Source: a virus (Duplodnaviria; Heunggongvirae; Uroviricota; Caudoviricetes). Taken from it: a stretch of DNA of 64,000 nucleotides. Every line of letters begins with the position of its first letter. Position 1 is the stretch's first letter. The translations under genes were made by a program, and so were the position numbers. This document shows, piece by piece, positions 3,374 through 51,509 of this stretch. A model generated the notes under the pieces. The model saw nothing but the letters and a program-made list of their open reading frames with translations. It was not told the DNA's origin and ran no database searches. Where the stretch lies: the IMG/VR virus record IMGVR_UViG_2778261631_000002, one strand, 5' to 3'.

Positions 3374-3574
3374 TTATCTGCTGCCCGGCATTCTCTGTTT
3401 AAGCGCAACCATTTCCTGACGGCATAACACAGCAATAGCGGTCCTGACTCCAATTTGCTTACCAACCAGGTATTGCTTTACCTTGCGGCGACTCACGCCA
3501 TCAAGAAGCATCTTTAACGCTTCACGGGACAATTTGTTGTATTTGCGTGCCATTAATCTACTCCGCAGAACCAT
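3374..3574 (-). CDS. Small basic protein (59-66 aa) at the P1 pdcA position
   Basis: Short ORF overlapping the doc 3' end; basic, possibly DNA-binding; start uncertain. Confidence 0.35.
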
Positions 3575-4159: not shown

Positions 4160-4230
4160 AAACACCTCGTGTACTCGTTATGTGTACATAATTATAAACT
4201 TCACAGGCATAAAGCACCAGCACTTTGCAG
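4160..4230 (-). promoter_or_regulatory. phd-doc promoter/operator region
   Basis: TATAAT on the minus strand followed by repeated GTACAC/TGTACA palindromic half-sites just upstream of phd; Phd/Doc autoregulate via palindromic operators. Confidence 0.5.
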
Positions 4231-36624: not shown

Positions 36625-36677
36625 TCCCGCTGGTGGGAGGTGGTGTTAGCCCCTCCCCTTCCTAAAATGTCCCGCAC

Positions 36678-36748
36678 CAATTTCATTGCTAACATTATGA
36701 TTTGCATGTGTTTTTTAGGAGAATTTCAGACTGAAATTCCCACGATTT
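36678..36748. other. parS centromere candidate: ParB box A heptamers around an AT-rich IHF-like core, with a variant box B
   Basis: ATTTCAT ... ATTTCAG-AC-TGAAAT-TCCCAC-GATTTAAC; same layout as P1 parS, but box B reads TCCCAC rather than the TCGCCA I recall for P1. Confidence 0.55.
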
Positions 36749-36812
36749 AACGCCTGCATTCACCGTCCACTTCCCCGCACAAAAAATTTAAAAAATTACT
36801 TTTCGCGAGAAA

Positions 36813-36837
36813 GTCAACAAGTGACTTTCAATAAAAT
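36813..36837 (+). promoter_or_regulatory. Candidate Lpa-dependent late promoter of the head/sheath operon (GTCAACAAGTGACT then TAAAAT)
   Basis: Motif shared with sites at 17109 and 49289. Confidence 0.4.
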
Positions 36838-36867
36838 CTCTTCCGAAAAGGGATTCACACAAGTGCC

Positions 36868-38595
36868 TTGTGTTTAAGGAAGAGTAACTTGAGTAACTTA
36901 CGCGAATACCAGAATCGTATTGCAGATATCGCAAAACGCTCTAAAGCCGTTCTTGGCTGGGCAAGTACAGCACAGTTCGGTACTGATAACCAATTCATCA
37001 AAGATGATGCCGCGCGTGCCGCATCTATCCTTGAAGCTGCACGTAAAGACCCAATTTTTGCGGGTATCTCTGATAATGCCACCGCTCAAATTGCTACCGC
37101 GTGGGCAAGTGCACTGGCTGACTACGCCGCAGCACATAAATCTATGCCGCGTCCGGAAATTCTGGCCTCCTGCCACCAGACGCTGGAAAACTGCCTGATT
37201 GAGTCCACCCGCAATAGCATGGATGCCACTAATAAAGCGATGCTGGAATCCGTCGCAGCAGAGATGATGAGCGTTTCTGACGGTGTTATGCGTCTGCCTT
37301 TATTCCTCGCGATGATCCTGCCTGTTCAGTTGGGGGCAGCTACCGCTGATGCGTGTACCTTCATTCCGGTTACGCGTGACCAGTCCGACATCTATGAAGT
37401 CTTTAACGTGGCAGGTTCCTCTTTTGGTTCTTATGCTGCTGGTGATGTTCTGGACATGCAATCCGTCGGTGTGTACAGCCAGTTACGCCGCCGCTATGTG
37501 CTGGTGGCAAGCTCCGATGGCACCAGCAAAACCGCAACCTTCAAGATGGAAGACTTCGAAGGCCAGAATGTACCAATCCGAAAAGGTCGCACTAACATCT
37601 ACGTTAACCGTATTAAGTCTGTTGTTGATAACGGTTCCGGCAGCCTACTTCACTCGTTTACTAATGCTGCTGGTGAGCAAATCACTGTTACCTGCTCTCT
37701 GAACTACAACATTGGTCAGATTGCCCTGTCGTTCTCCAAAGCGCCGGATAAAGGCACTGAGATCGCAATTGAGACGGAAATCAATATTGAAGCCGCTCCT
37801 GAGCTGATCCCGCTGATCAACCACGAAATGAAGAAATACACCCTGTTCCCAAGCCAGTTCGTTATCGCGGCTGAGCACACGGTACAGGCGGCGTATGAAG
37901 CACAGCGTGAATTTGGTCTGGACCTGGGTTCCCTACAGTTCCGCACCCTGAAGGAATACCTGTCTCATGAACAGGATATGCTGCGTCTTCGCATCATGAT
38001 CTGGCGTACTCTTGCGACCGACACCTTTGACATCGCTCTGCCGGTTAACCAGTCCTTTGATGTATGGGCAACCATCATTCGTGGCAAATTCCAGACTGTA
38101 TATCGCGACATTATTGAGCGCGTTAAATCTTCTGGTGCGATGGGGATGTTTGCTGGTGCTGATGCAGCATCTTTCTTCAAACAGTTGCCGAAGGATTTCT
38201 TCCAGCCAGCCGAAGACTATATCCAGACTCCGTATGTTCACTACATCGGTACCCTGTTCGGTAACGTGAAAGTGTACGAAGTACCTGCTGGTATTTGTAA
38301 GAACTTAACGACAGAGAACATTCAGTTCAGCTCGATGGATGTGCTGTGCTACGTCCGTGATGAAAATCCGGGTAAAGCAGGCTTCGTGACTGGTGATGCT
38401 GTCCCGGCTATCCCGTTCCAGCATCCGACCACTCCGGCGCTGGTCAACCGTACCACACTGTGGGGTTCGGCTATCAACGATATGCACCCACGCAACGGCG
38501 CTGATTACTTCACTCGTGTAACGCTGACAATGGCCAAAAAAGGCGGGCTTAACTTCATAAGCGGCGACACGATTGATGCCGGTGACTCTGAGTAA
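36868..38595 (+). CDS. Major head (capsid) protein, P1 gene 23 equivalent (true start possibly TTG at 36889)
   Basis: About 570-aa ORF after parS, as gene 23 is in P1; RBS AAGGAAGAG precedes the TTG at 36889. Confidence 0.65.
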   Translation: MCLRKSNLSNLREYQNRIADIAKRSKAVLGWASTAQFGTDNQFIKDDAARAASILEAARKDPIFAGISDNATAQIATAWASALADYAAAHKSMPRPEILASCHQTLENCLIESTRNSMDATNKAMLESVAAEMMSVSDGVMRLPLFLAMILPVQLGAATADACTFIPVTRDQSDIYEVFNVAGSSFGSYAAGDVLDMQSVGVYSQLRRRYVLVASSDGTSKTATFKMEDFEGQNVPIRKGRTNIYVNRIKSVVDNGSGSLLHSFTNAAGEQITVTCSLNYNIGQIALSFSKAPDKGTEIAIETEINIEAAPELIPLINHEMKKYTLFPSQFVIAAEHTVQAAYEAQREFGLDLGSLQFRTLKEYLSHEQDMLRLRIMIWRTLATDTFDIALPVNQSFDVWATIIRGKFQTVYRDIIERVKSSGAMGMFAGADAASFFKQLPKDFFQPAEDYIQTPYVHYIGTLFGNVKVYEVPAGICKNLTTENIQFSSMDVLCYVRDENPGKAGFVTGDAVPAIPFQHPTTPALVNRTTLWGSAINDMHPRNGADYFTRVTLTMAKKGGLNFISGDTIDAGDSE

Positions 38596-38621
38596 TCAGG
38601 GGAAGTTCTCCGTTTAACATA

Positions 38622-38640
38622 GCGCCCCCGTGCGGGGCGC
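38622..38640 (+). terminator. GC-rich stem-loop between the capsid and sheath genes (possible attenuator; no U-run)
   Basis: GCGCCCC-CGTGC-GGGGCGC. Confidence 0.3.
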
Positions 38641-38655
38641 ATAACAGGGAAAGTT

Positions 38656-40245
38656 ATGTCTCAATATTCAATTCAACAGTCATTAGGTAATGCATCCGGC
38701 GTCGCGGTTAGCCCGATCAATGCCGATGCTACGTTATCTACCGGTGTTGCATTAAATAGCAGCTTGTGGGCTGGTATTGGCGTATTTGCGCGTGGCAAGC
38801 CGTTTACTGTTCTTGCGGTTACTGAGTCCAATTACGAAGATGTTCTCGGCGAACCGCTGAAGCCGTCTTCCGGCTCACAGTTCGAACCAATTCGCCATGT
38901 GTACGAAGCTATTCAGCAAACGTCTGGTTATGTTGTCCGTGCTGTTCCGGATGATGCGAAGTTCCCGATTATTATGTTCGATGAATCAGGCGAACCGGCT
39001 TACAGTGCGTTGCCATATGGTTCTGAAATTGAACTTGATAGCGGCGAAGCCTTTGCTATCTACGTTGATGATGGTGATCCGTGTATTTCACCTACCCGTG
39101 AGTTAACCATCGAAACGGCAACAGCGGACAGCGCGGGTAATGAACGCTTCCTCTTAAAACTGACCCAGACGACTTCGCTCGGTGTGGTAACGACCCTGGA
39201 GACACACACTGTGTCTTTGGCGGAAGAAGCGAAAGATGACATGGGCCGCTTGTGTTATCTGCCTACGGCTCTGGAAGCCCGTTCTAAATATCTGCGCGCG
39301 GTTGTTAATGAAGATCTGATTTCTACAGCGAAAGTAACAAACAAAAAATCGTTGGCGTTCACTGGTGGTACCAACGGTGATCAGTCGAAAATCTCAACCG
39401 CTGCGTACCTGCGTGCGGTGAAAGTGCTGAACAATGCGCCGTACATGTACACCGCTGTTCTTGGCTTGGGCTGCTATGACAATGCGGCTATCACCGCATT
39501 AGGTAAAATCTGTGCAGATCGCCTGATTGATGGCTTCTTTGATGTCAAACCGACATTGACGTACACGGAAGCGATCTCTGCTGTTGAAGATACCGGTTTA
39601 CTTGGTACCGATTATGTAAGCTGTGCTGTCTATCACTTCCCGTTCTCCTGCAAAGACAAATGGACCCAATCCCGTGTGGTCTTCGGTCTGTCTGGCTCGG
39701 CGTATGCGGCGAAAGCTCGTGGCGTCAAGAAAAACTCTGATGTCGGCGGTTGGCATTACTCACCGGCTGGTGAAGAACGTGCCGTCATTGCTCGTGCGTC
39801 AATTCAACCGCTGTATCCGGAAGATACCCCGGACGAAGAAGCAATGGTCAAGGGCCGTCTCAATAAAGTATCTGTTGGCACCTCTGGCCAGATGATCATC
39901 GACGATGCTTTAACTTGCTGCACGCAGGATAACTATCTGCACTTCCAGCACGTCCCATCCCTGATGAATGCAATCAGCCGTTTCTTTGTCCAGTTAGCCC
40001 GACAGATGAAGCATAGCCCGGACGGTATTACTGCGGCTGGTCTGACTAAAGGGATGACCAAACTTTTAGATCGCTTTGTCGCCTCCGGCGCTCTGGTGGC
40101 TCCTCGTGATCCTGATGCTGACGGTACAGAACCGTATGTGCTGAAAGTTACGCAGGCGGAATTCGATAAATGGGAAGCAGTCTGGGCCTGCTGCCCGACT
40201 GGCGTAGCCCGTCGTATCCAGGGCGTACCGCTGCTTATTAAGTAA
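38656..40245 (+). CDS. Contractile tail sheath protein candidate, P1 gene 22 equivalent (529 aa)
   Basis: Size and position after the major head gene; assignment by synteny. Confidence 0.55.
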   Translation: MSQYSIQQSLGNASGVAVSPINADATLSTGVALNSSLWAGIGVFARGKPFTVLAVTESNYEDVLGEPLKPSSGSQFEPIRHVYEAIQQTSGYVVRAVPDDAKFPIIMFDESGEPAYSALPYGSEIELDSGEAFAIYVDDGDPCISPTRELTIETATADSAGNERFLLKLTQTTSLGVVTTLETHTVSLAEEAKDDMGRLCYLPTALEARSKYLRAVVNEDLISTAKVTNKKSLAFTGGTNGDQSKISTAAYLRAVKVLNNAPYMYTAVLGLGCYDNAAITALGKICADRLIDGFFDVKPTLTYTEAISAVEDTGLLGTDYVSCAVYHFPFSCKDKWTQSRVVFGLSGSAYAAKARGVKKNSDVGGWHYSPAGEERAVIARASIQPLYPEDTPDEEAMVKGRLNKVSVGTSGQMIIDDALTCCTQDNYLHFQHVPSLMNAISRFFVQLARQMKHSPDGITAAGLTKGMTKLLDRFVASGALVAPRDPDADGTEPYVLKVTQAEFDKWEAVWACCPTGVARRIQGVPLLIK

Positions 40246-40254
40246 GGGAATACA

Positions 40255-41070
40255 ATGAGCAAAAACTTTTTTCAATCCGGGGCATTTTTGGGGAATGGAC
40301 TGTCCCGTTTCGCTTTGAACTCTGATCCTGTGCAGCTGATGGAGTCTGCCCGAGCAAGCGCCGAACCGCCAACAGATCCGGTTATTAATAATAATCCGGA
40401 ACCGGCGGCACAGACTAACGATAACGTTCCATCTGATCCGGCTCCTGAGCAAATCCTGGAAGAGAAAGACGGTAAAGAATGGACCGTTGAACAGGCGCAC
40501 CAGATGATTCTGGAAGCTGCAAATCGAAGTGCGATGCAGAATGCGTTGAGTGATGCGGCCGACGCCGTTTTCGCCTGGGCTGATAGCGGTGATCTGACTT
40601 TCGACTCCCTTGATGGTTTCATTCAGGCTATCGCTGGTATCTCTGATGACGACGACTCCGAAGTTACAGAAGAACAGGACGATGCCTATAACGAAGCATG
40701 GGCAAATGTTGCTGACTTCCTCGCAGCATGCGGTGTAGATGATGACATGATCGAAGCACTGGCTGACGATGAAGACGACGACGCTGCTGCTGATGTTGGT
40801 GCCTCTATCGCTGGTTTAGATAGCGACGACCGCGACGAACTGGAAGCGGCGTTTGTTGTTGCTGGCACTTCTGATGAAATGCTGACTGAAGCATTTAAGA
40901 AGGTTGTTCGTAACGGTGAGATCAAACTCATCCGTAAACGCCTGCGGAAAAAACGTCTGACTGCGGCTCAAAAATCGGCGCTGAAAAAAGCGCGTCGAAA
41001 AGCCCAGACCGGCGCGGCAAAACTTGCCCGCAAAAAGTCAATGAAACTGCGCAGTAAGCGCCTTGGCTAA
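40255..41070 (+). CDS. Highly acidic protein with Lys/Arg-rich C-terminal tail (271 aa)
   Basis: Asp/Glu runs (DDDDSEVTEEQDD, DDEDDDAAAD) then KRLRKKRLTAAQKSALKKARRKAQ. Confidence 0.55.
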   Translation: MSKNFFQSGAFLGNGLSRFALNSDPVQLMESARASAEPPTDPVINNNPEPAAQTNDNVPSDPAPEQILEEKDGKEWTVEQAHQMILEAANRSAMQNALSDAADAVFAWADSGDLTFDSLDGFIQAIAGISDDDDSEVTEEQDDAYNEAWANVADFLAACGVDDDMIEALADDEDDDAAADVGASIAGLDSDDRDELEAAFVVAGTSDEMLTEAFKKVVRNGEIKLIRKRLRKKRLTAAQKSALKKARRKAQTGAAKLARKKSMKLRSKRLG

Positions 41071-41105
41071 AGGAGGAGGCCGGAGAACTCCGGCCTTTAA
41101 CTTGA

Positions 41106-41687
41106 ATGGCACCTATACCTTATGGGGTTTACAGCCAGGCTGATGGTGTATCGCCATTTCTGAAAGTTACTTTAACGAACTCTCAGTACCAGGTTACCGG
41201 ATATATCAGCCAGGGGGCAGCAATGAACATGGCCCAGAATTGGGAAGCGCCGTTTACCGGTATGTCCATGGGGTCTGTTGCTGGTGCTTTCAGTGGTTTT
41301 GCGCAGGTTGGTACTGAAACAACGTCGGTGGCCCGTTGGAACAGCTTAATGGTTTGGGAGGGGGGAACACCGCCGACTTTCACGCTGCCAGTAACTTTCA
41401 TCGCTTTGTTTGACCCATTCACGGAGGTTTCAGGAGCTATCGCCGCATTGTCAGCGATGATTAGCCCGGAACTTAAAGATGCCAGTATTGGTGGTCGAAT
41501 CCCGGAGCGTGTGACGCTAAACATTGGTCGCCGGATCAACATCATTGATGTCGCTATCCAGGACATAAGTTTCGATCTCGATGCACCCAGGGACAGCAAT
41601 GGGCATTTCCTGAAAAACACCGTCAACCTCCAGTTGACCGGTTCTTCGATATATAACAGCTCCGATATTGTTCGGGCGTTCCAGTAA
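41106..41687 (+). CDS. Tail structural protein candidate (193 aa)
   Basis: ORF after a short hairpin at 41075-41095. Confidence 0.5.
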   Translation: MAPIPYGVYSQADGVSPFLKVTLTNSQYQVTGYISQGAAMNMAQNWEAPFTGMSMGSVAGAFSGFAQVGTETTSVARWNSLMVWEGGTPPTFTLPVTFIALFDPFTEVSGAIAALSAMISPELKDASIGGRIPERVTLNIGRRINIIDVAIQDISFDLDAPRDSNGHFLKNTVNLQLTGSSIYNSSDIVRAFQ

Positions 41688-41698
41688 AAGGATTTTAT

Positions 41699-42208
41699 AT
41701 GGGGCACAATAACACTAAGGGAAACCGTAAATTTATTAAGGGCCGCTATACTGCCAACGCGGCCAAAGGCGAACGACTGGTATCTTCTGAATTCCAGCTC
41801 ACTTTTGCAGGCCATGAAGATATCAGCGTACTGGTTCGCACGTCGCAAATTCCTGAAATGACCCGCGAGGATGTGGAGGACTATGGTCCGAATGGTGTGA
41901 AGTTCAACCAGCACGGTCCAATTCGAAACTCTGGGGAAATCCAGGTCCAGTGCGTGGAGACTATCGAAGGCGATATTCTTCAGTTCATTAAAGATCGCAT
42001 TGCGGCGAAGGACTATGTTGATATCACGATGGCTGCTACCCCTGAATCCAAATCTTCCGGGGTTAACGCTGTGACAAAAGCTGCTACAACAATTGAAATG
42101 TTGGACTGCAAAATCTACAGTGATGCAATCGACTTTAGTACCGAAGATGTGACTGCCGCTGTGCGCCCGTCACTTCGTATCGTCTACAACTGGATTGAGT
42201 GGGATTAA
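41699..42208 (+). CDS. Tail tube-like protein candidate (169 aa)
   Basis: Size and position typical of myovirus tube proteins; tentative. Confidence 0.45.
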   Translation: MGHNNTKGNRKFIKGRYTANAAKGERLVSSEFQLTFAGHEDISVLVRTSQIPEMTREDVEDYGPNGVKFNQHGPIRNSGEIQVQCVETIEGDILQFIKDRIAAKDYVDITMAATPESKSSGVNAVTKAATTIEMLDCKIYSDAIDFSTEDVTAAVRPSLRIVYNWIEWD

Positions 42209-42238
42209 GTGTTATCCCTTGTACTTTTAATCTTCTTC

Positions 42239-42259
42239 GGGGGAGGTTTACCTCCCCTT
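42239..42259 (+). terminator. Stem-loop at the boundary of the AT-rich island (weak U-run)
   Basis: GGGGAGG-TTTA-CCTCCCC. Confidence 0.4.
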
Positions 42260-42505
42260 GATACAACCGCATTCCACCGCCTAGCGAATAGAGTAAAATA
42301 ACATCTTGTAAATACTCTGGTATGAAGTGAGTGTAAACTAACAGTTACCTATTAATAAATACTCCTATACTTTTCTACCTTAAATATTTAGTATGCACAT
42401 GGTTAAATTTATGTAGCGTCAAAGTTTGTGAAGGCAAGATGTCCGTTAATCTTTGTCGAAGCATATATGGTTCTAGGAAGTATTGGCTTATTTAAGAGGA
42501 ATGTC

Positions 42506-43498
42506 ATGTTACGTATCAATGATATGAGCAATATTATTGTAGGTATTTACAGCAAAAAAAATGAAGAAAAATCATTTGAGTATATGTACTCTTATCTGAC
42601 AAGGAAAACAGCTTATTTAACACGTGAGTTTATTCGTGATGGTAATCAGGATAAAGAATTATTAAAAAATACCTATATAGAAGCATTGTCTTGGCTTTTT
42701 GCAATCTGTGATAAACTTGAAATACAACCACAGGAAGCATTTTATAAAAAATTTCCTAGTTGCTGTCCTTATTGCTTAGGGGCGCCTTGTTCCTGTTCTC
42801 AAACACACAGAAAGCCAGAGAAAATAAGAAGCGCAAAAGGAATTAAAGATGAGCTTTTCAATAAATATAACGCTATTAAACCTATGCAATTTCCGCCTTA
42901 TGCGCCACGAATGATTAATGACATCTATCCGTCGAATAGAACCATTTGGTCTACTTTTGGTGGGTTTTATCATTCATCCAGGTTATTCGAAGAGTTGGGT
43001 GAGTTGCAAGAGGCTTATGCTAAATCAATTGAAGATAAAAATTACAACAAAGAAAATCTTCATGAAGAGTGTGCTGATATATATGCTTGGTTGTTTTCTT
43101 TATGGGGGATTATTTTTAAAGATGATGATCTTGGCGAGGCGTTTGAAAGTTATTATCTAAATGGTTGTCCTGTCTGCAATAAAAGAGAATGTGTTTGTGT
43201 CAGTTATTCAGGGAAGATTAGTAAAACTGATGAGAAAAGAGCATCATTGGAAAAACTTAAACAAGAGTTAGAACTTCTCTTGAAGGATGAGACGACAGGT
43301 GAGTTTAAGGAGAATTTAGAGTCTGCTATATCTGCAATTAAAGATGCGATAGACTCAGGAAAAGATGCAGATAGCAGAAGAACTTTATCGGAAGTCGAAA
43401 GTGTTCTTGACTCAATCGAAAAAAATTCAGCCAAGATGTCTAGTGTGGCAAGTAACGCCCTTAATGTTTTTAATGTAATCAGTAAGTTATTCCAATAA
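42506..43498 (+). CDS. MazG-like NTP-pyrophosphohydrolase-fold protein with two Cys clusters and C-terminal coiled coil (330 aa from ATG 42506; alternative ATG at 42467)
   Basis: FEELGELQEAYAKS...HEECADIYAWLFSLWG matches the EExxE / EExxD helices of MazG/HisE-type all-alpha NTP-PPases; CCPYCLGAPCSC and CPVCNKRECVC clusters; strongly AT-rich codon usage unlike its neighbours. Confidence 0.6.
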   Translation: MLRINDMSNIIVGIYSKKNEEKSFEYMYSYLTRKTAYLTREFIRDGNQDKELLKNTYIEALSWLFAICDKLEIQPQEAFYKKFPSCCPYCLGAPCSCSQTHRKPEKIRSAKGIKDELFNKYNAIKPMQFPPYAPRMINDIYPSNRTIWSTFGGFYHSSRLFEELGELQEAYAKSIEDKNYNKENLHEECADIYAWLFSLWGIIFKDDDLGEAFESYYLNGCPVCNKRECVCVSYSGKISKTDEKRASLEKLKQELELLLKDETTGEFKENLESAISAIKDAIDSGKDADSRRTLSEVESVLDSIEKNSAKMSSVASNALNVFNVISKLFQ

Positions 43499-43505
43499 TG
43501 GTGCC

Positions 43506-43550
43506 CACCGGTTTGTTAGAAAATGAACCGGTGTTGTATTATTTATTATT
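43506..43550 (+). terminator. Rho-independent terminator after the MazG-like gene
   Basis: CACCGGTT-loop-AACCGGTG followed by a T-rich run. Confidence 0.6.
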
Positions 43551-43852
43551 AAATTAATTTTAATCCTAATAGATGGATGTTTGTTGTGGATATAATTTGT
43601 TTAAGTTTTAGGTGTATTTTTCCATATATAATCTAGGTGGTATTAGCGAAGCAAGTATGGAATTTTGTTAACAGCTAGATATTTCTGAAAGTCATCATGT
43701 CGCGAAGGCTATTGGGAGATATGGTCTGAATCTTTGCATGATGTGAAATAACTCCTTCTACTTCATTGTGTTTTACACTATTGGGGAGAAAAGGGTGCAT
43801 TGAGGTTACCAGACACACGAAGAGTGGCGGGGATCACTCCCCGCCAGGTCTC

Positions 43853-44008
43853 TTACCTTTCAGATTCGTAGGCTGTGAAGACAGTGACCTCCGTCTGGCC
43901 GGTTCGGATTCGTACCTCGCAGAGGTCTTTCCTCGTTACCAGTGCCGTCACAATGACGGTTAAACAGATGACGATCAGAGCGATTAACATCGCTTTTTGC
44001 TGCTTCAT
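43853..44008 (-). CDS. hok: Hok/Gef-family type I toxin, 51 aa (MKQQKAMLIALIVICLTVIVTALVTRKDLCEVRIRTGQTEVTVFTAYESER)
   Basis: Near-identity in pattern to HokC/Gef (MKQHKAMIVALIVICITAVVAALVTRKDLCEVHIRTGQTEVAVFTAYESE); AGGAG RBS; below the ORF-track size cutoff. Confidence 0.8.
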   Translation of the reverse strand: MKQQKAMLIALIVICLTVIVTALVTRKDLCEVRIRTGQTEVTVFTAYESER

Positions 44009-44066
44009 AGCCTGCTTCTCCTTGACCTTTTGGTCGGTAAGAGGCTAATCTACGTATGCTAAGCAT
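43860..44066 (-). CDS. mok: mok-like overlapping reading frame (68 codons) coupling hok translation
   Basis: ORF in a different frame starting upstream of and overlapping hok, the canonical hok/mok/sok arrangement. Confidence 0.5.
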   Translation of the reverse strand: MLSIRRLASYRPKGQGEAGYEAAKSDVNRSDRHLFNRHCDGTGNEERPLRGTNPNRPDGGHCLHSLRI

Positions 44067-44090
44067 AGATATGGCCTCAGATTAATGTTA
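44010..44090 (+). ncRNA. sok: Predicted Sok-like antisense RNA region (boundaries not determined)
   Basis: By analogy with hok/sok loci the antisense RNA is antisense to the mok start region; TTGACC -35-like hexamer at about 44023 on the plus strand. Confidence 0.3.
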
Positions 44091-44189
44091 AGCGTCTTGC
44101 AGGACGCGTAATGTTATCTGGGGCTTTCTTCTATCTGCTTTTCGGGTCATGCCTGAAGCAGATAGCCTCAAGCACCCGCAACGATTGTA

Positions 44190-44516
44190 TCAATGTCTGG
44201 CTTTTTTTCTATAGAAATCACCTGGAAGGGTGAATATCCACATCAGAAGAAATGTTGCAGCAAACATGATCCCTAATGGCCAGACCGCGCCAAAGAAAAT
44301 CCATACTAAGATCTCCTCTGCTCGTTCTTTGCGGTCGATATCGACAAGCATTTTTCGGCTGATCATGTATACACAGAAGCCAATACAAACATATCCTGCA
44401 AAAGCGATCGCTAACTGTAAAAAATCAGATTGCATCTCCGACCTCAAACTGAAAACGCCAGGTGACTCCAGATTAGAGCAATCTATCACCCCCTGAATCC
44501 TGCCGGTATACCCCAT
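44190..44516 (-). CDS. Small membrane protein (two predicted TM segments; start uncertain, possibly the internal MQSDFLQ)
   Basis: Hydrophobic stretches; overlaps the repL 3' end. Confidence 0.4.
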   Translation of the reverse strand: MGYTGRIQGVIDCSNLESPGVFSLRSEMQSDFLQLAIAFAGYVCIGFCVYMISRKMLVDIDRKERAEEILVWIFFGAVWPLGIMFAATFLLMWIFTLPGDFYRKKARH

Positions 44517-45295
44517 TTTTCGTTATCTTTATTTTTGGCTAAAACCGCATTAAGAGCTTCGTTTACCGTCATGCAATGCGGTAGATTATCGAAGTTTGAT
44601 ATCCCGCCAATATCAGGCGAACGCTTGTTCTTCAGGTAAGCATATTTCCGCGCAGCCGCCTCTACTTTCTGCTTGAACTCATGTTTTTGAGCGCGTTTTT
44701 TGGATAACCGCAGATTGTCAGCCTTTGCTTTTGCCTCAGCGATCCATGAAGTCAATTTTTTGAGTCTTGTCGTTCCGGCACCGCCGGAAACTGATCTTTT
44801 TGTTTTTTTAACTTGTGACTTCTTATTCTTTATTGCCACGTCATCCTGACAGGGGGAGGGGGTATCATTTTGACATGGGGGTGTGGATAAAAAATCAAAT
44901 AAAGCCAATGTCTTAGCGAGAACAGCTTTAACCTTGGTTGCGGCTGAAGAGATCTTTAATTTGCTTTCAATCAGCGCGTTTTTAGCGTGTTGTGCGAAGG
45001 CCAAAAAGGATGGTGTAAACCGGTACAGGTTAGCGCGGCGTTCACGGTGATCGCCGATAACAATCTCTACCGACAGGATTCCTTTGTTTACAGCTTCACG
45101 GAATGCGCGAACGACGGTTGATTGGCTATAACCAGTTTCTGCCGCGATCATGCGGTGAGGCTTGTGAATGAAGTATTCACTGGTTGTTGCCGCGAGATTT
45201 GCACATTGCGACAGGATATGCCCGGCGCTACGGGATAGACCGGAGTGTGTTACAAAGCAGGCCAATTCATAGCCAGAAAAAGTAAAATCGCTCAT
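44486..45295 (-). CDS. repL: RepL lytic replication initiator (start taken at MSDFTFSGYEL)
   Basis: Translation recognised as P1 RepL; follows kilA as in P1. Confidence 0.8.
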   Translation of the reverse strand: MSDFTFSGYELACFVTHSGLSRSAGHILSQCANLAATTSEYFIHKPHRMIAAETGYSQSTVVRAFREAVNKGILSVEIVIGDHRERRANLYRFTPSFLAFAQHAKNALIESKLKISSAATKVKAVLAKTLALFDFLSTPPCQNDTPSPCQDDVAIKNKKSQVKKTKRSVSGGAGTTRLKKLTSWIAEAKAKADNLRLSKKRAQKHEFKQKVEAAARKYAYLKNKRSPDIGGISNFDNLPHCMTVNEALNAVLAKNKDNEKWGIPAGFRG

Positions 45296-45360
45296 CGTTA
45301 TACAGCTCAGGAAAGTGACTTTAGCCAGCATTACAATGCTGGTGGTTCTTACTACGTCTG

Positions 45361-46161
45361 TTAGCGCGTAGCCGCGACATGTACCAGCACACCAGCATCA
45401 AGCAATCGCTTCATTAGCCACTGCTGACCTTTGCCGGTTATACGAGTCGTGAAAGAAATCCTGCTTCCGTTGCTTGTATCGATCACGGTTTCTTTGAGGG
45501 TGAAGTACCCACGGGATATGTATTCTTGTTTGGGGACGTTCCTGCGTTCACCGGTTGCGATCAGAATTCCGTTATCACGCAACCAGGTGAAGAGATAGTT
45601 TTGGCCCAGGCCGAGCACTTTGGCATAGTTGCCGATTAGAACCCCGCTGGCGGTAGCAACGCGTTCGGCGAATTCGACTTTAGGCGCATCCATAAGCATT
45701 TTTTGCTCCAGCCGTTGCTTTTGCTCTGCCAGGTCGGCAGCCAAACGGAGAGCTTCAGGGAGACTCTGCGGAATAGCAGGTTGCAATCTTCCGGCTCGAT
45801 AGTCGATAAATGTCTGGTTTACCTTCAGCCGAAACGCGGGAGAAATCCAGCCTGCGTACTCCACAGCGAGCAATTCATGGGCAAACGTACCGCCGCCACG
45901 GCCTTCGAACGAAACTATGCAATTCTGCATAGTTTCTTTTTCAAGCTCTTCGATGAGCTGTTTGGCTGACAGCGTTCTTAGCCATTGAGCTGGCGCTTTA
46001 TGGGCACCGAGTCCGCTCGCTCTGTGTAGAGCATTAAGGTTGTAACGGCCAGCGCGGTCGGTCGTAATTTCAACACCACAAATAACAGGCAGAGTGGTTG
46101 AAGGATCGACATTTTGATGAAGGTTTGATATATTCATATCCGCATTGAATGTTTGTTGCAT
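45361..46161 (-). CDS. kilA: KilA (KilA-N domain protein), 266 aa
   Basis: KilA-N-type N-terminus; C-terminal half paralogous to the upstream Ant protein; preceded by a C1 operator. Confidence 0.7.
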   Translation of the reverse strand: MQQTFNADMNISNLHQNVDPSTTLPVICGVEITTDRAGRYNLNALHRASGLGAHKAPAQWLRTLSAKQLIEELEKETMQNCIVSFEGRGGGTFAHELLAVEYAGWISPAFRLKVNQTFIDYRAGRLQPAIPQSLPEALRLAADLAEQKQRLEQKMLMDAPKVEFAERVATASGVLIGNYAKVLGLGQNYLFTWLRDNGILIATGERRNVPKQEYISRGYFTLKETVIDTSNGSRISFTTRITGKGQQWLMKRLLDAGVLVHVAATR

Positions 46162-46230
46162 TTTTTCTCCAAATTTGCATCAACCTTCAATCACCAGCTC
46201 GAAATGGTGATTCTTTGCACTTAGAAAACG

Positions 46231-46247
46231 AAATTTATTAGAGCAAA
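46231..46247 (-). promoter_or_regulatory. C1 operator upstream of kilA-repL
   Basis: Minus strand TTTGCTCTAATAAATTT, 16/17. Confidence 0.6.
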
Positions 46248-46324
46248 TTTTTCTGACTCGATCCAGATCGGGTTGGTCGATCTGCTCAGAAACCTGCCAG
46301 TTTGCTGGCAGGTTTTTTCTTTTG

Positions 46325-47368
46325 TTAACCTATTGCTACTGGTTTTAACAAACCAGCATCAAGTAGCTTGCGAGTTAACCACTGCTGGCCTTTACCCGTT
46401 AATTGGGGCGTCAGCCGTATCTGGTAGCCATTTTCATCATCCAGCACCACTTCTTTCACCGTGAAATACCCGGCGTTAATGTACTGCTGGCGCGGTACGT
46501 TTTTGCGCGCACCAAAAGCCATGAGAATGCCGTTCTGGCGCAACCATGAGAAAAGGGCGTTTTGCTTAAGTCCAACGACCTTTGCAAAGTTCCCGATCAG
46601 GATTCCATTAGCCGCTGATACCCGGTCGGCAAAATCGACTTTAGGGGCTGCGGCCACCAGCTGTTGTTCCAACTGCATTTTCTGTTCTGCCAACTCGGCA
46701 GCCAGGCGTAGAGCGTCTGGTAATGTTTGGGGGATCGATGGGGCAGGGGAGTTTGCCTGCTGCAATTCTTCCAGTTTGTCGATCAGCGAACGGCGGACTG
46801 CTTTTGACTCGCGCGCGGCGACTCGCAGGGCTTGTTTGTAGGTCATGGTTATGACAACCATAGGCGTACCGCCACCTGGCGGCACGGTTGCACTTTTTGT
46901 GTAACCGTCCTCACCTTCTAATTCGTCGAGTATTTTTTTGATGAATTTGTTGTTCCGAACCTCTGGTTCCCCACATAACTTACGCGCTTCATTGACCATC
47001 TTTAACAGCGTCTGGCTGTCGATTGTGTCTCCAGTGTTGGAGATAACATTCACAGCTGGTGATGGCGTAGCTGAAGCAAAAGATGCTGGTTTTTTAACAT
47101 TCAAATTATTACTGGTCATTCTATGTGCCTCCTTTCTCATTTCTGCTGCCACCGTTGCGTAACGTAGACGTCCTTGTTCAATCAAATAATCCCTGATCTC
47201 GGCTATCAGTAGCCTGTTGATCACAGCCTTATCTGTTCGGGTATAAAAACGTCTGGTTATCATGAAATAGTTGGCAATTGCGCCGGGGATCTCCCGTGTC
47301 GGCATACAGGCAGTATGCAGGGCGATCGCTTCGGCTATGTCATTACGGGTGACGAGAGGTTTTTTCAT
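46325..47368 (-). CDS. ant1: Antirepressor Ant (347 aa)
   Basis: Position downstream of icd/c4 in an immI-like region; C-terminal domain shared with KilA. Confidence 0.7.
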   Translation of the reverse strand: MKKPLVTRNDIAEAIALHTACMPTREIPGAIANYFMITRRFYTRTDKAVINRLLIAEIRDYLIEQGRLRYATVAAEMRKEAHRMTSNNLNVKKPASFASATPSPAVNVISNTGDTIDSQTLLKMVNEARKLCGEPEVRNNKFIKKILDELEGEDGYTKSATVPPGGGTPMVVITMTYKQALRVAARESKAVRRSLIDKLEELQQANSPAPSIPQTLPDALRLAAELAEQKMQLEQQLVAAAPKVDFADRVSAANGILIGNFAKVVGLKQNALFSWLRQNGILMAFGARKNVPRQQYINAGYFTVKEVVLDDENGYQIRLTPQLTGKGQQWLTRKLLDAGLLKPVAIG

Positions 47369-47586
47369 AAAACCCCCTGAACGTCGGAAGAGAAGGGGAG
47401 GTTCCAGTAACTAAGTGAATTGCGCGAGTTAGTTGAAAAACGGGCAGTAAAAATGCAGGGGCCATCAGGCAATTGAGAGCGTGCTTCGTCTTCTGTTGCT
47501 GCGATGACGAAGTGATAGTGGTGTTTTTTGCAGGAATAGAAACGCCAGATGAATTCTTGGCGTGCGCAAGGATTGGCATTAACCAT
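47365..47586 (-). CDS. icd: Icd-like small protein (73 aa) upstream of and coupled to ant
   Basis: 73-codon ORF ending 3 nt before the ant start, the size and position of P1 icd. Confidence 0.55.
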   Translation of the reverse strand: MVNANPCARQEFIWRFYSCKKHHYHFVIAATEDEARSQLPDGPCIFTARFSTNSRNSLSYWNLPFSSDVQGVL

Positions 47587-47624
47587 AGTTACGGCCTCAC
47601 AATCAGGTTTAACAACCTGCTACC

Positions 47625-47715
47625 CGCTGCTAAACAGGTGGCAGGACGTGACGGGGTTAGCAGACTGGCGATTGTGAAACCAGCAGGCCGAAGCCTCCCC
47701 ATCACGCCCCACCAT
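47625..47715 (-). ncRNA. c4: c4-like antisense regulatory RNA region (approximate)
   Basis: Between the operator at 47900 and icd; GTTTAGCAGC occurs twice and its complement CTGCTAAC downstream, consistent with c4 pairing with targets in its own transcript; stem-forming GGTGGGG...CCTGCCACC ends. Confidence 0.4.
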
Positions 47716-47899
47716 AATTTGGGCGTAACGCGGTTTTACGGACACAAAAATACCGCAATATCGGATATCTGCGGCTGTCCGCACAATCATTCAGGCTGCT
47801 AAACCCGGTCGCAGAATTTGCTACGACGGCGAAACTATAAGCCTGAACGATTAAAAGGTCAATATGATGCAAAAAGATAGCATTCGCGACTTAAAAATA

Positions 47900-47916
47900 C
47901 AAATTTATTAGAGCAG
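47900..47916 (-). promoter_or_regulatory. C1 operator of the immI operon
   Basis: Minus strand TCTGCTCTAATAAATTT, 15/17. Confidence 0.55.
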
Positions 47917-48198
47917 ATTAGCGTCGTGCAATAGATATATTATTTGTGATGAAAAATAATGCAGAGGGATATTGTAACTTTAAGATGGATATCAATAGTC
48001 GATACATAAATTAAGTTAGCAATAAACTATTAACTTAAGAAATAATGCAGATGGTGAACTTGTCTCTGACTTTTCAGCTATACACAATAAGTTAGGGATA
48101 GCTTATAAAAAGTTGATTAATTGATATAAGTCAATGGGAGTATTCTTGTTTACTTTCCGTTCTCGTGGTAACTTCTCGCCGGTTTTTGTTTTTCTGGG

Positions 48199-48720
48199 AT
48201 GATTCTTATGTCTAAAAAGTATACTTTATGCGCTCTTGTTGTATCTGCAATTCTTCTTTCTGGGTGTCAATCTAGCGGTGCTGATTATGCTGCCGATGTT
48301 TATGATACCGCTCAATTGAATTCGAAGCAGGAAACAAAGACAGTCAATATTATCTCTGTGCTTCCAGCTAAAGTGAAAGTTGATAATAAAGCTAATAAAG
48401 AAGCGGCACAGACATTTGGTGCGGTACTGGGAGCTGTTGCTGGGGGCGTTGCCGGTTATAATGTTAAAGGCACATCGACACTGGGTGCTGTAGCTGGCGG
48501 TACTGGTGGTGCGGCTCTTGGTGCAGCGGCTGGTTCTTTGGTTAGTGATAAAACAATTGTTGAAGGTGTTTCACTGACTTATAAAGAAGGAACTAAGGTG
48601 TTCACTTCAACTCAAGTTGGTAAAGCATGCCAGTTTACAACGGGGCTTGCTGTGCTTATTTCAACTAAAGATAATGAAACTCGAATTCAGCCAAATGCTA
48701 CTTGTCCAGAAAAGAAATAA
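48199..48720 (+). CDS. Lipoprotein with glycine-zipper region (lipobox LLSGC), about 170 aa
   Basis: Signal peptide plus lipobox; GAVLGAVAGGVAGYNVKGTSTLGAVAGGTGGAALGAAAGS glycine-zipper-like segment. Confidence 0.6.
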   Translation: MILMSKKYTLCALVVSAILLSGCQSSGADYAADVYDTAQLNSKQETKTVNIISVLPAKVKVDNKANKEAAQTFGAVLGAVAGGVAGYNVKGTSTLGAVAGGTGGAALGAAAGSLVSDKTIVEGVSLTYKEGTKVFTSTQVGKACQFTTGLAVLISTKDNETRIQPNATCPEKK

Positions 48721-48723
48721 TTT

Positions 48724-49263
48724 ATGAATAAAATTATTTTATTTCTAATCTTTTCTACGTTTAGTGTAGGCACTGCCTTGGCTAACTCGTTGCAAAGTCA
48801 AATTGCTGCTATTGCTCAAGCGGAAAATGAAGGGCGAGCTAAAGAGCAGCAAGCTGAGGATGCCAGAAAAGAACTTATTCGCCAACAAGCACAAGCTGAA
48901 CGTATTAGAAGAGAAAAAGCAGCATCTGCCGCTGCTGCACGCGAAAAACAGCGTGTTGCTGCAGAAAATGAACGTAGAGCGAAACGAGAAGCCGAGCTAG
49001 CAAATGACAAGAAGCGAGATCAAGCTTATGAGGATGAGCTTCGCAAGCTGCAACTCGAAAGCATGAAACTCGAACTGCAAGCAAAAGCGGCTCGTGTCCA
49101 GCGAGAAAACGATTTTATAGAGCAGGAGTTGAAGGAGAGAGCAGCTAAGACAGATGTAATTCAGTCTGAGGCTGATGCAAATAGAAATATTTCTACAGGA
49201 AGTAAAGATTTACTGCAAAGCGAAGGAAAAGCTAGAGAGAAGAAAGCTAGCAGTTGGTGGTAG
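48724..49263 (+). CDS. Secreted/periplasmic coiled-coil protein rich in Ala/Glu/Arg/Lys (179 aa)
   Basis: N-terminal signal peptide MNKIILFLIFSTFSVGTALA then charged helical repeats (TolA-like composition). Confidence 0.55.
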   Translation: MNKIILFLIFSTFSVGTALANSLQSQIAAIAQAENEGRAKEQQAEDARKELIRQQAQAERIRREKAASAAAAREKQRVAAENERRAKREAELANDKKRDQAYEDELRKLQLESMKLELQAKAARVQRENDFIEQELKERAAKTDVIQSEADANRNISTGSKDLLQSEGKAREKKASSWW

Positions 49264-49288
49264 TAATCACTACGATTGCGAGCATACT

Positions 49289-49312
49289 GTCACAAATGAC
49301 AACTCGTAGAAT
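49289..49312 (+). promoter_or_regulatory. Candidate Lpa-dependent late promoter (GTCACAAATGACA then TAGAAT)
   Basis: Motif shared with sites at 17109 and 36813. Confidence 0.4.
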
Positions 49313-49319
49313 CTGTTAA

Positions 49320-49910
<591 letters not shown>

Positions 49911-49920
49911 GGGGGCTGAT

Positions 49921-50532
49921 ATGGGGCTTAATGTTGCTTCAGTAAAGTCTTATGTATCTTCAGCATTAACGACGACATTATTTGGCTCCGGCGTTGGTGA
50001 ACGGGAAGTTGGTAAGCTGACGTCAATCATCATGAACAAAATGCTGTTCGCGCAAGGATGGCAGTTCTCTGTCGAAGTTGATGGACTGGAGGGGGCAGAC
50101 TTCTTTGCCAAAGATATTACCTACCACGATTACAGCATCGAATATGAAACGATTAAAATCGGCGGAGGGAATATCCTTCAGCCAACGGAGCGTTCGCCTG
50201 GGCAGATAACCATGATGGTCAGGGATACCGTTGATGGCCTCGTTTTGGACTGGTTTAAGACGGCAAAAAGTCGGGTGATCAATCCGGACGGTACCGGGAA
50301 TATACCGTCTAAATATTTGCTCAATGTGCGTATTTATCGGTTGCTGTCCTCCGGTTTAACCAAACTGGAAAATGAGATGACGGTATTCCCGGTCACTACC
50401 GGCGATGTCACCTATGCGCGGGATCAGGTTACGGAATTTAAGTCATTCCCAATGACCTTCGCATTGCACAGCACGTTTAACCAATCCTCAAGTTCTTTGG
50501 CTTCCCTTCTGGGCTTTAGTTTTTCTCTTTGA
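49921..50532 (+). CDS. Tail tube candidate (203 aa)
   Basis: Size and position upstream of the tape-measure-like sit gene; tentative. Confidence 0.45.
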   Translation: MGLNVASVKSYVSSALTTTLFGSGVGEREVGKLTSIIMNKMLFAQGWQFSVEVDGLEGADFFAKDITYHDYSIEYETIKIGGGNILQPTERSPGQITMMVRDTVDGLVLDWFKTAKSRVINPDGTGNIPSKYLLNVRIYRLLSSGLTKLENEMTVFPVTTGDVTYARDQVTEFKSFPMTFALHSTFNQSSSSLASLLGFSFSL

Positions 50533-50546
50533 ATTAAGGAGCAAGG

Positions 50547-51428
50547 ATGCTTTTACCCCTTTTCCCGCTACCATCGCGGCCAACTGAATTGATCCAGTTC
50601 CGTCAGCCAAATATTGCTGATGCGATGCGTTTCAACTCGATAACACCGGAGGAACAAGAACAACAGACAACGGCATATTTAAAAGCCTTGCTGGTTGAAC
50701 CCGCGAAACATGATCCCCTGACATGGACGGCGCAGGACCGGATTACCGCGTTATGGTGGATATTTACCGGCTCCCGTGAAACACCGGTCGAGACATTCAC
50801 CTACACCTGTAAACATTGCGGTAAAGAGCATTATTACGATTGCGATATGAATGCTCTGGCTGAAGATATCCAGGTCCTGGAAGTGGAACCGTTCATTGAC
50901 GATATTGAGGTGTCTGTAGAGGGAGTGCCTTATCAATGGCGTATCGTGCCGCTTGATGGTTGGGCAATGGAAATGCTGGAGATGCGCCGTGCAGCATTGC
51001 CACCTGAAGACGACGCGGAATTCAAAGAAGCGATCGTTGATTTGCGTTTTTGGGAATTCGCTTATCAGTGTGAGCTTTATAACGATGTTAGCGGTACTCG
51101 TGAAGATCAGGCTGAGCGTCGTTATGAAACGATTAAACGGATGGCCATTGATACTGAATTTATGAAGCTGGCGGCACACATCCGACTGGCTCATGAAAAG
51201 CTCGAACATGGTTTACCGTGCTACATCGATAAAGGTGAAATGCGTCTTCGTCTCCCGCCGCATAAATGCCCAAATCAGGATAAAAAGGAGTCCACAGAGG
51301 GTGCGTATACCCGTCTGTGGGTGCCCTTTCGGGCTACCGACTTCATTCCACAGGTGGGGATTGAAAAGCTATCAGACCTTAGTGTCCAACCTGGTTTTGT
51401 ATGGGGGTATACCGATTCAGGACGCTGA
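50547..51428 (+). CDS. Hypothetical tail assembly protein (293 aa)
   Basis: ORF directly upstream of sit. Confidence 0.5.
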   Translation: MLLPLFPLPSRPTELIQFRQPNIADAMRFNSITPEEQEQQTTAYLKALLVEPAKHDPLTWTAQDRITALWWIFTGSRETPVETFTYTCKHCGKEHYYDCDMNALAEDIQVLEVEPFIDDIEVSVEGVPYQWRIVPLDGWAMEMLEMRRAALPPEDDAEFKEAIVDLRFWEFAYQCELYNDVSGTREDQAERRYETIKRMAIDTEFMKLAAHIRLAHEKLEHGLPCYIDKGEMRLRLPPHKCPNQDKKESTEGAYTRLWVPFRATDFIPQVGIEKLSDLSVQPGFVWGYTDSGR

Positions 51429-51509
51429 AAGGCTTACTGAATCCTATGCGTTTTTCCTGTTGGAGAAACTGGAAGAAAAACTTAAACCGAAACGGTAGGC
51501 GATAAGATC

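Follow-up and report, generated by a model that had tools for sequence, protein, structure and literature searches.

The window analysed here, a stretch of 64,000 nucleotides from a Caudoviricetes virus record (IMG/VR IMGVR_UViG_2778261631_000002), raises the question of whether an element that carries the addiction module phd-doc also possesses an intact type I toxin-antitoxin system, and which role such a system would have. A hok/mok/sok-like locus had been proposed at 43790-44190. This was borne out almost to the base, since homology to lambdoid hokW loci spans 43793-44189. Judged from its sequence, the locus is a structurally intact, ordinary member of the hok/mok/sok family. We consider it highly probable that it is a functional type I toxin-antitoxin cassette of the HokD/HokW subgroup in a P1-like plasmid prophage, with post-segregational killing as its primary role. 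By analogy with characterised systems, this role, as a backup to phd-doc and partition, is the most likely one, and a secondary effect, possibly on lysis timing after induction or on superinfecting phages, is also likely. The reading as an intact cassette is based on a full-length HOK_GEF match, the RF01794 leader, tac/fbi covariation, the switch energetics, conservation and distribution. The anatomy of the gene and RNA, the family membership, the conservation and the distribution were observed directly.

The predicted 51-amino-acid ORF was present on the minus strand at 43853-44008, with the Shine-Dalgarno sequence AAGGAG at 44018-44023. Its product, MKQQKAMLIALIVICLTVIVTALVTRKDLCEVRIRTGQTEVTVFTAYESER, covers positions 1-42 of the 42 in the Pfam HOK_GEF profile (PF01848; E 2.4e-22, 78.7 bits, cutoff 22) and matches PHROG 251 'MokW-like host killing' (E 4.9e-32). 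The conserved residues C15, C30 and A46-Y47-E48-S49 (the C-terminal AYES motif) are all in place, and the ORF is thus not disrupted. The peptide had been likened to HokC/Gef. This likeness held at the family level (41 of 50 aligned residues identical when counted by eye, ~82%), but not for the subgroup, since HokD (96%) and HokW (92%, 47/51) are closer. PGAP names identical copies of the peptide HokD. Identity to R1 Hok was 42%, and the ORF stayed under the strict cutoffs of the NCBIfam subfamily and HokA models (49.5 vs 73). [quoted passage not shown]

The candidate hok mRNA promoter was found by a consensus scan at 44184-44211 on the minus strand, within the 3' end of an upstream 81-aa ORF. 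It is composed of the -35 box TAGAAA (44211-44206), a 16-nt spacer with TG and the -10 box TACAAT (44189-44184), which amounts to 9 of 12 consensus matches plus an extended -10 TG. The -10 box aligns with TATAAT, TAGAAT and TATGAT of other hok loci, and G at 44177 is located 7 nt downstream. From this presumptive +1 (GGGUGCUUGAGG) to the end of fbi, the fold and the hokW homology predict a full-length mok-hok mRNA of at least 385 nt (43793-44177, minus strand). Its fold, in which the 5' and 3' ends are clamped together, had a minimum free energy of -156 kcal/mol (z = -7.5 relative to shuffled sequences). The scan found no intrinsic terminator after fbi, which makes the length of this mRNA a minimum. 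An Rfam match to RF01794 ('sok') was detected at 44003-44177 (113.9 bits, gathering score 59, E 3.8e-25, model positions 1-157 of 157). Since this match is on the hok-sense strand (minus) and ends at the hok AUG, we rejected it as proof of the antisense gene and assigned it to the leader of the hok mRNA.

Structure prediction and alignment to the hok/sok mRNA elements revealed that tac, fbi and ucb were all present. The translational activator element, tac (GGGUGCUUGAGG, 44166-44177, minus strand), pairs at 12 of 12 positions, with one bulge, with the fold-back inhibition element, fbi (CCUCAAUGCACCC, 43793-43805, minus strand). The two elements covary between subfamilies, being GGGUGC/GCACCC in the window and GGCGC/GCGCC in R1-type loci, and fbi was retained in each of the 37 aligned cassettes, where nothing but G-U changes occurred. 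The ucb or anti-SD box (AAGCCCCAG, 44118-44126, minus strand) has two predicted pairing partners: the mok Shine-Dalgarno region when the RNA is closed, and tac when it is open. The former pairing appeared in the consensus fold (columns 56-62 with 100-106) and, as a predicted fold, is conserved among the aligned cassettes; the latter formed when the 5' 58 nt were folded alone, and it is also part of the Rfam consensus. For the truncated mRNA, we used a constrained fold comparison, which is more informative than unconstrained folding. The enforced tac-ucb pairing cost 14.8 kcal/mol in the full-length RNA and 2.6 kcal/mol in the 3'-truncated RNA, and these switch energetics match the model summarised in PMC9841398. 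In the unconstrained fold of the truncated RNA, a local 5' hairpin was favoured over tac-ucb by 2.6 kcal/mol. This hairpin may be the metastable structure described for R1.

The overlapping mok-like frame was likewise present at 43860-44066 on the minus strand, where the ORF and the alignment define 68 codons, with a GAGG Shine-Dalgarno sequence (44075-44078) 8 nt upstream. The mok ATG is placed 58 nt upstream of the hok ATG and out of frame with hok, and the mok stop precedes the hok stop by 7 nt. Both the mok ORF and its GAGG sequence were retained in 78 of 79 related cassettes. The dcb box (GCCUC, 44041-44045, minus strand), which falls inside the invariant GCCTCTTAC block, is predicted to pair, once the RNA is open, with GAGGC of the mok Shine-Dalgarno sequence. 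In the constrained fold of the truncated RNA and also in the Rfam consensus, this pairing closes the Sok-target hairpin with the loop CUUAGCAUA (44055-44063). The structured 3' end of the original prediction was found as a stem-loop at 43826-43845 on the minus strand (GGCGGGGA-GTGA-TCCCCGCC in the DNA, GGCGGGGA-GUGA-UCCCCGCC in the RNA), in which two pairs have changed in a compensatory way (GC to AU in 6 sequences; GU/GC/AU). As in R1 (PMC9841398), it would form the end of the processed (truncated) hok mRNA and protect it.

On the plus strand, a candidate Sok promoter was read from the sequence at 44022-44051: the -35 box TTGACC (44022-44027), an 18-nt spacer and the -10 box TAATCT (44046-44051). 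It is positionally homologous to TTGCGC-N17-TATCCT (R1-type) and TTGCCT-N17-TAACCT (lambdoid), and this homology was used to place it, as a generic consensus promoter scan did not call it; the -10 box and the 18-nt spacer are imperfect. For the predicted Sok antisense RNA (~75 nt, 44058-44132, plus strand), the coordinates were taken over from sokW as annotated in phage 933W. It would have a single-stranded 5' tail GCUAAGCAUAGAUAU, a hairpin of ~25 bp and a U-rich end (GGGGCUUUCUUCU), and its sequence complements that of the mok translation-initiation region. Its predicted fold (-30.4 kcal/mol, z = -4.6) has the same architecture as that of sokW.

Across the cassettes, the hok ORF (column entropy 0.05 bits), the hok Shine-Dalgarno sequence and the Sok hairpin are nearly invariant, and the Sok-recognition loop is the hypervariable part. 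The consensus fold of 37 cassettes keeps tac-fbi, the 5' hairpin, the ucb/SD hairpin and the 3' hairpin, with 9 pairs doubly compensated. A decayed remnant was ruled out, given that the ORF, both Shine-Dalgarno sequences, tac/fbi, ucb/dcb, the 3' hairpin and the Sok elements are intact and conserved. A rival reading takes the cassette for an inert passenger, a selfish ~400-bp unit recombined into P1-like genomes which is neither expressed nor toxic any more. In some P1-like plasmids, IS421 is inserted ~23 nt after the hok stop (3' UTR) or only the first 148 nt of the cassette are left. Because such plasmids tolerate IS421 insertion or loss of the hok ORF, the cassette is dispensable. Many chromosomal hok loci are inactive, several of them in E. 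coli K-12, and Pedersen and Gerdes are said to have described in 1999 the inactivation of chromosomal hok loci by IS elements. However, every element is intact in the window, and the ORF and the regulatory stems are constrained with compensatory changes, while only the Sok-recognition loop diversifies. Furthermore, the cassette is retained at 95-100% identity in ~500 plasmids, compared with ~515 plasmids that have the P1 repL (PLSDB). An inert passenger is thus very unlikely.

For a functional cassette that acts in post-segregational killing, we propose the following course, in which transcription, processing, toxicity and plasmid stabilisation of the window copy are modelled on the R1 and hokW systems. 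A stable mRNA of ~385 nt or longer would be transcribed from the weak promoter and locked shut by the pairing of 5' tac with 3' fbi; in this closed mRNA, the ucb box would mask the mok ribosome-binding site. Slow 3' trimming to the GGCGGGGA...UCCCCGCC hairpin would strip off fbi. Then tac would pair with ucb, and the mok start region would open as a hairpin, which could be translated or bound by Sok. As long as the cell keeps the plasmid, the convergent plus-strand promoter would supply short-lived Sok (~75 nt), which would bind to the mok-start hairpin via its single-stranded 5' tail and block mok translation, so that the coupled hok translation would also be off, and the duplex would be destroyed. 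When the plasmid is lost or transcription stops, Sok would decay first and the processed mRNA would be translated. The 51-aa Hok peptide would then depolarise the inner membrane, leading to cell death. Against a functional cassette stand the imperfect Sok -10 box and spacer, the lack of an intrinsic terminator after fbi, the local 5' hairpin preferred in the truncated RNA, the inactivity of many chromosomal hok loci and the dispensability of the module in some P1-like plasmids. The known workings of hok/sok are unchanged by our findings.

The hokW-mokW-sokW locus of Stx2 phage 933W and the Sakai prophage Sp5, which belongs with the broader set of chromosomal or prophage hokD-type loci, shows ~88% DNA identity to the window over 43793-44189 and has the same tac, fbi, ucb, hok Shine-Dalgarno sequence, 3' hairpin and Sok hairpin. 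However, the mok and hok starts are 57 nt apart in hokW, where mok is an in-frame N-terminal extension (70 codons), whereas one additional base between the two start codons puts the 68-codon mok of the window out of frame. The Sok promoters also differ (TTGACC-18-TAATCT in the window, TTGCCT-17-TAACCT in hokW), as do 3-8 of 15 positions of the Sok recognition tail in comparison with the hokW type. Moreover, the window represents a low-copy plasmid prophage, while hokW belongs to an integrated lambdoid prophage.

The hok/sok (parB) locus of R1 and those of related IncF plasmids are built in the same way from the same RNA elements, and their mok likewise starts 58 nt ahead of hok in another frame. 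R1 and the window have in common the GCCTCTTAC/dcb block, the AAGGAGAAG hok Shine-Dalgarno sequence and the 5'-3' clamp. In R1, the tac/fbi pair differs compensatorily (GGCGC/GCGCC), the 5' hairpin has an additional insertion, and a clear terminator follows fbi, unlike in the window. Post-segregational killing by R1 hok/sok has been described (PMC9841398), and since R1 hok/sok is also plasmid-borne, the same role is expected here. The hokC (gef)/mokC/sokC locus shares ~75% DNA identity over the entire cassette and possesses the same elements. In contrast to the window locus, it resides on the E. coli chromosome, its mokC is in frame, and its Sok-hairpin region is shorter (an 18-nt deletion in the alignment).

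The genomic setting is that of P1. Positions 36000-52000 of the window have 97-98% DNA identity to P1, P7 and P1-like phages, and the P1 backbone around the locus comprises c4, icd-ant, kilA, repL, bplB, tail genes and phd-doc; C4 RNA and its targets were detected by Rfam. Pfam confirmed phd (3938-4165, with the canonical ATG at 4159) and doc (3558-3938). The element therefore contains two unrelated addiction modules, a type I locus and a type II locus, as originally predicted. P1 phd-doc presumably serves the same purpose, namely to kill or arrest cells from which the plasmid prophage has been lost. However, phd-doc uses a protein antitoxin degraded by protease and a kinase toxin with the Fic fold, whereas hok/sok uses an antisense RNA and a membrane peptide, and the two have no sequence relationship.

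The ~400-bp cassette is located just downstream of repL, the lytic replication gene, and stands in place of rlfA-rlfB-pmgF of the reference P1 and P7, in which no remnants of the hok cassette were found. The gap between repL and bplB is a variable cargo site, with a MazG-like gene in some elements. Neither PADLOC nor Pfam gave an assignment for the two neighbouring ORFs of the cassette. The cassette points in the same direction as the C1-repressed kilA-repL lytic operon, from which only a weak terminator-like hairpin separates it. The loss of the C1 operator downstream of repL was given little weight as a meaningful rewiring: the junction is inside the operator, but P1's own operator half is already divergent.

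This position is relevant to another explanation, in which the cassette mainly benefits the lytic cycle. After induction, Sok would vanish, Hok would damage the inner membrane, and lysis would be advanced or assisted, giving more progeny; read-through from kilA-repL could hinder the convergent sok promoter. The relatedness to hokW-sokW (~88% DNA, 92% protein) is in line with this, and hokW-sokW accelerated growth arrest and, after mitomycin C, doubled the release of Sp5, while sokW RNA disappeared upon induction (PMC8621323). However, the Sp5 effect was no more than about two-fold, and the near plasmid-exclusive P1-type allele and the R1-like out-of-frame mok both fit addiction. Furthermore, the reference P1 and P7 lyse well without hok, and P1 has a set of holin, antiholin and endolysin. 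A mainly lytic benefit is possible but not probable, and the lytic-cycle and addiction roles can coexist.

The cassette might instead be chiefly an abortive-infection or exclusion device that shields the lysogen population against unrelated lytic phages that shut off host transcription, upon which Sok would decay and Hok would kill the infected cell early. It had been remarked that hok loci can interfere with phage infection. This is supported by R1 hok/sok on a high-copy plasmid, with which, as related in later papers, the plating efficiency of T4 fell by 42% and its plaque size by ~85% (Pecota & Wood 1996, cited in PMC8621323 and PMC10305079). The variable cargo site with its MazG-like gene would also suit such a device. 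However, the T4 effect is modest and required a high copy number, while P1 plasmids have few copies, and it comes from the R1 system, not from the HokD/W subgroup. In addition, no PADLOC model matches Hok or either neighbour. Exclusion as the chief role is decidedly unlikely.

The distribution of the cassette bears on post-segregational killing, the role that we prefer. The cassette was present in 475 of 5,426 complete E. coli genomes (~9%), and in these the P1-type allele occupied 475 plasmid places and 4 chromosomal places. This allele is almost exclusive to plasmids, a pattern that fits an addiction module needing to escape chromosomal antitoxins. Chromosomal or prophage hokD-type copies are present in virtually every E. 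coli. A more specific proposal, which we regard as rather doubtful, is a specialised plasmid-prophage allele. Its Sok-recognition loop would have diversified from the hokD-type copies, so that resident Sok cannot disarm it, and its placement after kilA-repL would couple Hok release to induction by transcriptional interference with the sok promoter. [quoted passage not shown] In this plasmid-exclusive Sok recognition allele, the divergence of antisense specificity, by which cross-neutralisation from chromosomal homologues would be avoided, can be tested in a simple case.

The hok cassette, and not rlfA/rlfB of laboratory P1, is the majority state in natural P1-like plasmids. This corrects the perspective given by the textbook P1 and P7 with their rlfA-rlfB-pmgF, as most natural P1-like phage-plasmids have an intact hok/sok besides phd-doc. 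The module probably contributes to their very stable carriage. The cassette is not new: hundreds of public P1-like records already list its toxin gene, as hokD or MokW. These annotations contain the toxin CDS only, and leave out mok, Sok and the regulatory RNA elements. A literature search for hok in P1-like elements turned up hok solely on further plasmids of the strains concerned, and nothing on the P1-like copy. Many of the hok-bearing P1-like phage-plasmids spread resistance genes.

The original prediction, a hok/mok/sok-like locus and phd-doc in one phage, was correct in both its observation and its interpretation. In the ORF listing, the minus strand of 43790-44190 contained the 51-codon hok ORF (43853-44008) and the overlapping 68-codon frame (43860-44066) as claimed, and the 3′ hairpin, GGCGGGGA-GTGA-TCCCCGCC, was located at 43826-43845. 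The window also contains phd (3938-4165) and doc (3558-3938), each confirmed by Pfam. The 51-aa peptide matched the entire Pfam HOK_GEF profile (78.7 bits, cutoff 22, E 2.4e-22) and also PHROG 251 "MokW-like host killing". Although these matches were clear, the peptide did not attain the strict Hok subfamily cutoffs of NCBIfam.

The Rfam covariance model RF01794 matched 44003-44177 over all of its 157 positions (113.9 bits, gathering score 59, E 3.8e-25). This model is named "sok antitoxin"; the match sits on the hok-sense strand and terminates at the hok AUG. Thus, what the match certifies, and what RF01794 in practice models, is the hok mRNA leader, not an antisense transcript. A chance pattern is ruled out for the hok ORF, leader, hairpin and phd-doc matches.

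In the canonical model, a tac/fbi stem closes the full-length hok mRNA and ucb sequesters the mok Shine-Dalgarno sequence, whereas 3′ truncation leaves an open mRNA in which tac/ucb and SD/dcb stems form; the truncated form is the target of Sok, and a terminal 3′ stem-loop protects it (PMC9841398). By comparison with this model, the cassette has all of its elements as sequence or predicted structure. The promoter scan placed the hok promoter, TAGAAA-16-TACAAT with TG, at 44211-44184 on the minus strand, and G44177, the first base of the conserved GGGUGCUUGAGG, lies 7 nt downstream of it. The fold of 44177-43790 had an energy of -156 kcal/mol (z = -7.5), and its first 12 nt pair with CCUCAAUGCACCC at 43805-43793. 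In eight loci from across the family, compensatory changes preserve this clamp (hokC/D/W group, GGGUGC/GCACCC; R1-type loci, GGCGC/GCGCC). The consensus fold of 37 distinct cassettes kept tac/fbi, the 5′ hairpin, the ucb-SD hairpin and the 3′ hairpin, with both-sided changes at nine pairs. Enforcing tac/ucb cost 14.8 kcal/mol in the full-length RNA, whereas the cost was 2.6 kcal/mol after trimming to the 3′ hairpin. In the tac/ucb conformer of the trimmed RNA, the mok Shine-Dalgarno GAGGC pairs with the dcb box GCCUC (44045-44041), and a hairpin with the loop CUUAGCAUA is formed. In R1 hok an intrinsic terminator follows fbi, whereas none was found 3′ of the fbi box in 43700-43793 (minus strand).

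A mok ORF preceded by GAGG was detected in 78 of 79 related cassettes. In P1-type cassettes, the mok ATG precedes the hok ATG by 58 nt; this mok has 68 codons in a different frame from hok and terminates 7 nt short of the hok stop. R1 mok is likewise out of frame, 58 nt upstream. In contrast, hokW, hokC and most lambdoid copies have a 57-nt offset and a mok of 70 codons, so that Mok is Hok with an in-frame N-terminal extension. In the alignment, this difference is a one-base indel within 44008-44066, GGTCAAGG vs GG-CAAGG.

The Sok coordinates were obtained by transferring the sokW annotation of phage 933W onto the window. The predicted RNA extends from about 44058 to about 44132 on the plus strand, and its predicted promoter, TTGACC-18-TAATCT (44022-44051, plus strand), is imperfect; it aligns with TTGCGC-17-TATCCT of the R1-type and TTGCCT-17-TAACCT of the lambdoid loci. 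The predicted fold (-30.4 kcal/mol, z = -4.6) consists of a single-stranded 5′ tail, a hairpin of ~25 bp and an GGGGCUUUCUUCU tail, the same architecture as in sokW of 933W. The 5′ tail has complementarity to the region around the mok AUG and to the target-hairpin loop.

Column entropy was calculated by segment for 35 distinct hokD/W-type cassettes. The means were 0.05 bits for the hok ORF, 0.01 bits for the hok Shine-Dalgarno and 0.07 bits for the Sok hairpin, vs 0.79 bits for the 15-nt target of the Sok 5′ tail (44058-44072). Variability peaks in the 10 nt at 44054-44063, which essentially correspond to the target-hairpin loop. One recognition allele is common to 20/20 P1-type cassettes, bar one single-base exception, and 54 lambdoid cassettes show 3-8 mismatches to it over the 15 positions. 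Among 5,426 complete E. coli genomes, a 50-nt probe of this allele hit 475 plasmid places vs only 4 chromosomal ones; some hok homologue was found in 5,425 of these genomes (median, three places each). Cross-talk is lacking between R1 hok and chromosomal hok (PMC9841398). The recognition diversity and the plasmid bias would be expected if specificity diversifies so that a resident Sok cannot neutralise an incoming addiction module.

Judged from its sequence, the cassette is very probably a functional hok/sok. That the copy in the window is instead an inert remnant is unlikely, even though some relatives are disrupted, either by IS421 ~23 nt past the hok stop or by truncation to their first 148 nt. 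The IS421 insertion (about 43830) was observed in about a dozen P1-like plasmids, for example at 1897-3009 of plasmid locus L091 (CP063732.1); it lies within the 3′ hairpin and splits the fbi box from the remaining hok mRNA. These copies resemble the chromosomal hok loci that IS elements have disrupted in K-12. Five plasmid hits (H85-H88 and H164) cover only query nt 1-148 (window 44043-44190), the leader and sok without the hok ORF, and are possibly orphan antitoxin remnants.

About 500 PLSDB plasmids carry the cassette at ≥95% identity, and 449 cover ≥80% of it; P1-type repL was found in 515 plasmids and P1-type rlfA/rlfB in 101. Most of the cassette-bearing plasmids are about 95 kb in size and non-mobilizable. 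RefSeq names their toxin gene "hokD: type I toxin-antitoxin system toxin HokD", and the toxin ORF is labelled "MokW" in GenBank MH422554. Thus, the gene is already catalogued; the system is of a known kind, with the toxin gene annotated at the same position in hundreds of P1-like plasmids. No feature is annotated over the sok/mok segment in public records, and no paper discussing hok/sok in P1-like elements was found in the searchable literature library. The remaining interest is that laboratory P1 is atypical at the repL-bplB position and that the Sok-recognition allele is confined almost entirely to plasmids.

The window is a P1-like phage-plasmid: in Rfam it matched the C4 antisense RNA together with the targets of this RNA, and 36000-52000 has 97-98% identity with P1, P7, RCS47, SJ46 and further Punavirus records. 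The minus-strand gene order is c4, icd/ant, kilA (45361-46161), repL (44486-45331), a membrane-protein ORF (44190-44516) and the hok cassette; repL is upstream in 19/19 P1-type cassettes from IMG/VR. The membrane-protein ORF (probable start 44435, 81 aa from Met28) encodes a predicted two-helix small protein of PHROG 3772 (unknown function), is beside the cassette in 17 of the 19 loci, and contains the hok promoter within its 3′ end. In reference P1 and P7, rlfA-rlfB-pmgF occupy the repL-bplB interval instead, and local BLAST placed the homology breakpoints at 42241 and 44472; pmgF is missing from the hok-bearing version. This interval (42242-44471) is a cargo hotspot, where about 500 plasmids have the 81-aa ORF and hok/sok. 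In the P1-like phage MH422554, bplB directly adjoins the cassette; therefore, segment 42242-43780 is a further insertion. It consists of a 356-aa ORF (42428-43498, plus strand), elsewhere called "MazG-like family protein", and an AT-rich spacer (43500-43780) beside the hok 3′ end. The ORF had no match in Pfam or PADLOC and a weak one to PHROG 2245 (NTP pyrophosphohydrolase), and its insertion is rare (about 16 PLSDB records, 2/19 IMG/VR P1-type loci). Since homology with the hokW loci of lambdoid Stx phages is limited to 43793-44189, the mobile unit is the ~400-bp cassette, coinciding with the predicted transcript and the -10 box.

Post-segregational killing as in R1, redundant with phd-doc, is the best-supported reading of the cassette. 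The closest characterised system is hokW-sokW, in which HokW is toxic and localised to the inner membrane, and sokW RNA neutralises it in partial dependence on RNase III and Hfq (PMC8621323). On prophage induction sokW disappears, and deletion of the locus delayed growth arrest and halved phage release (PMC8621323). Assistance of lysis on induction, as with hokW-sokW, is plausible here and compatible with post-segregational killing. The cassette immediately follows the C1-repressed kilA-repL operon in the same orientation, with only a weak terminator-like hairpin in between. Phage exclusion is possible but weakly supported.

Homology to P1/P7 breaks within the 17-bp C1 operator that follows repL (44465-44483, minus strand), at operator position 12; the site reads ATTGCTCTAAT|CTGGAG in the window vs ATTGCTCTAAT|TATAAC in P1. 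Thus, C1 control over the genes downstream of repL may differ here from that in P1.
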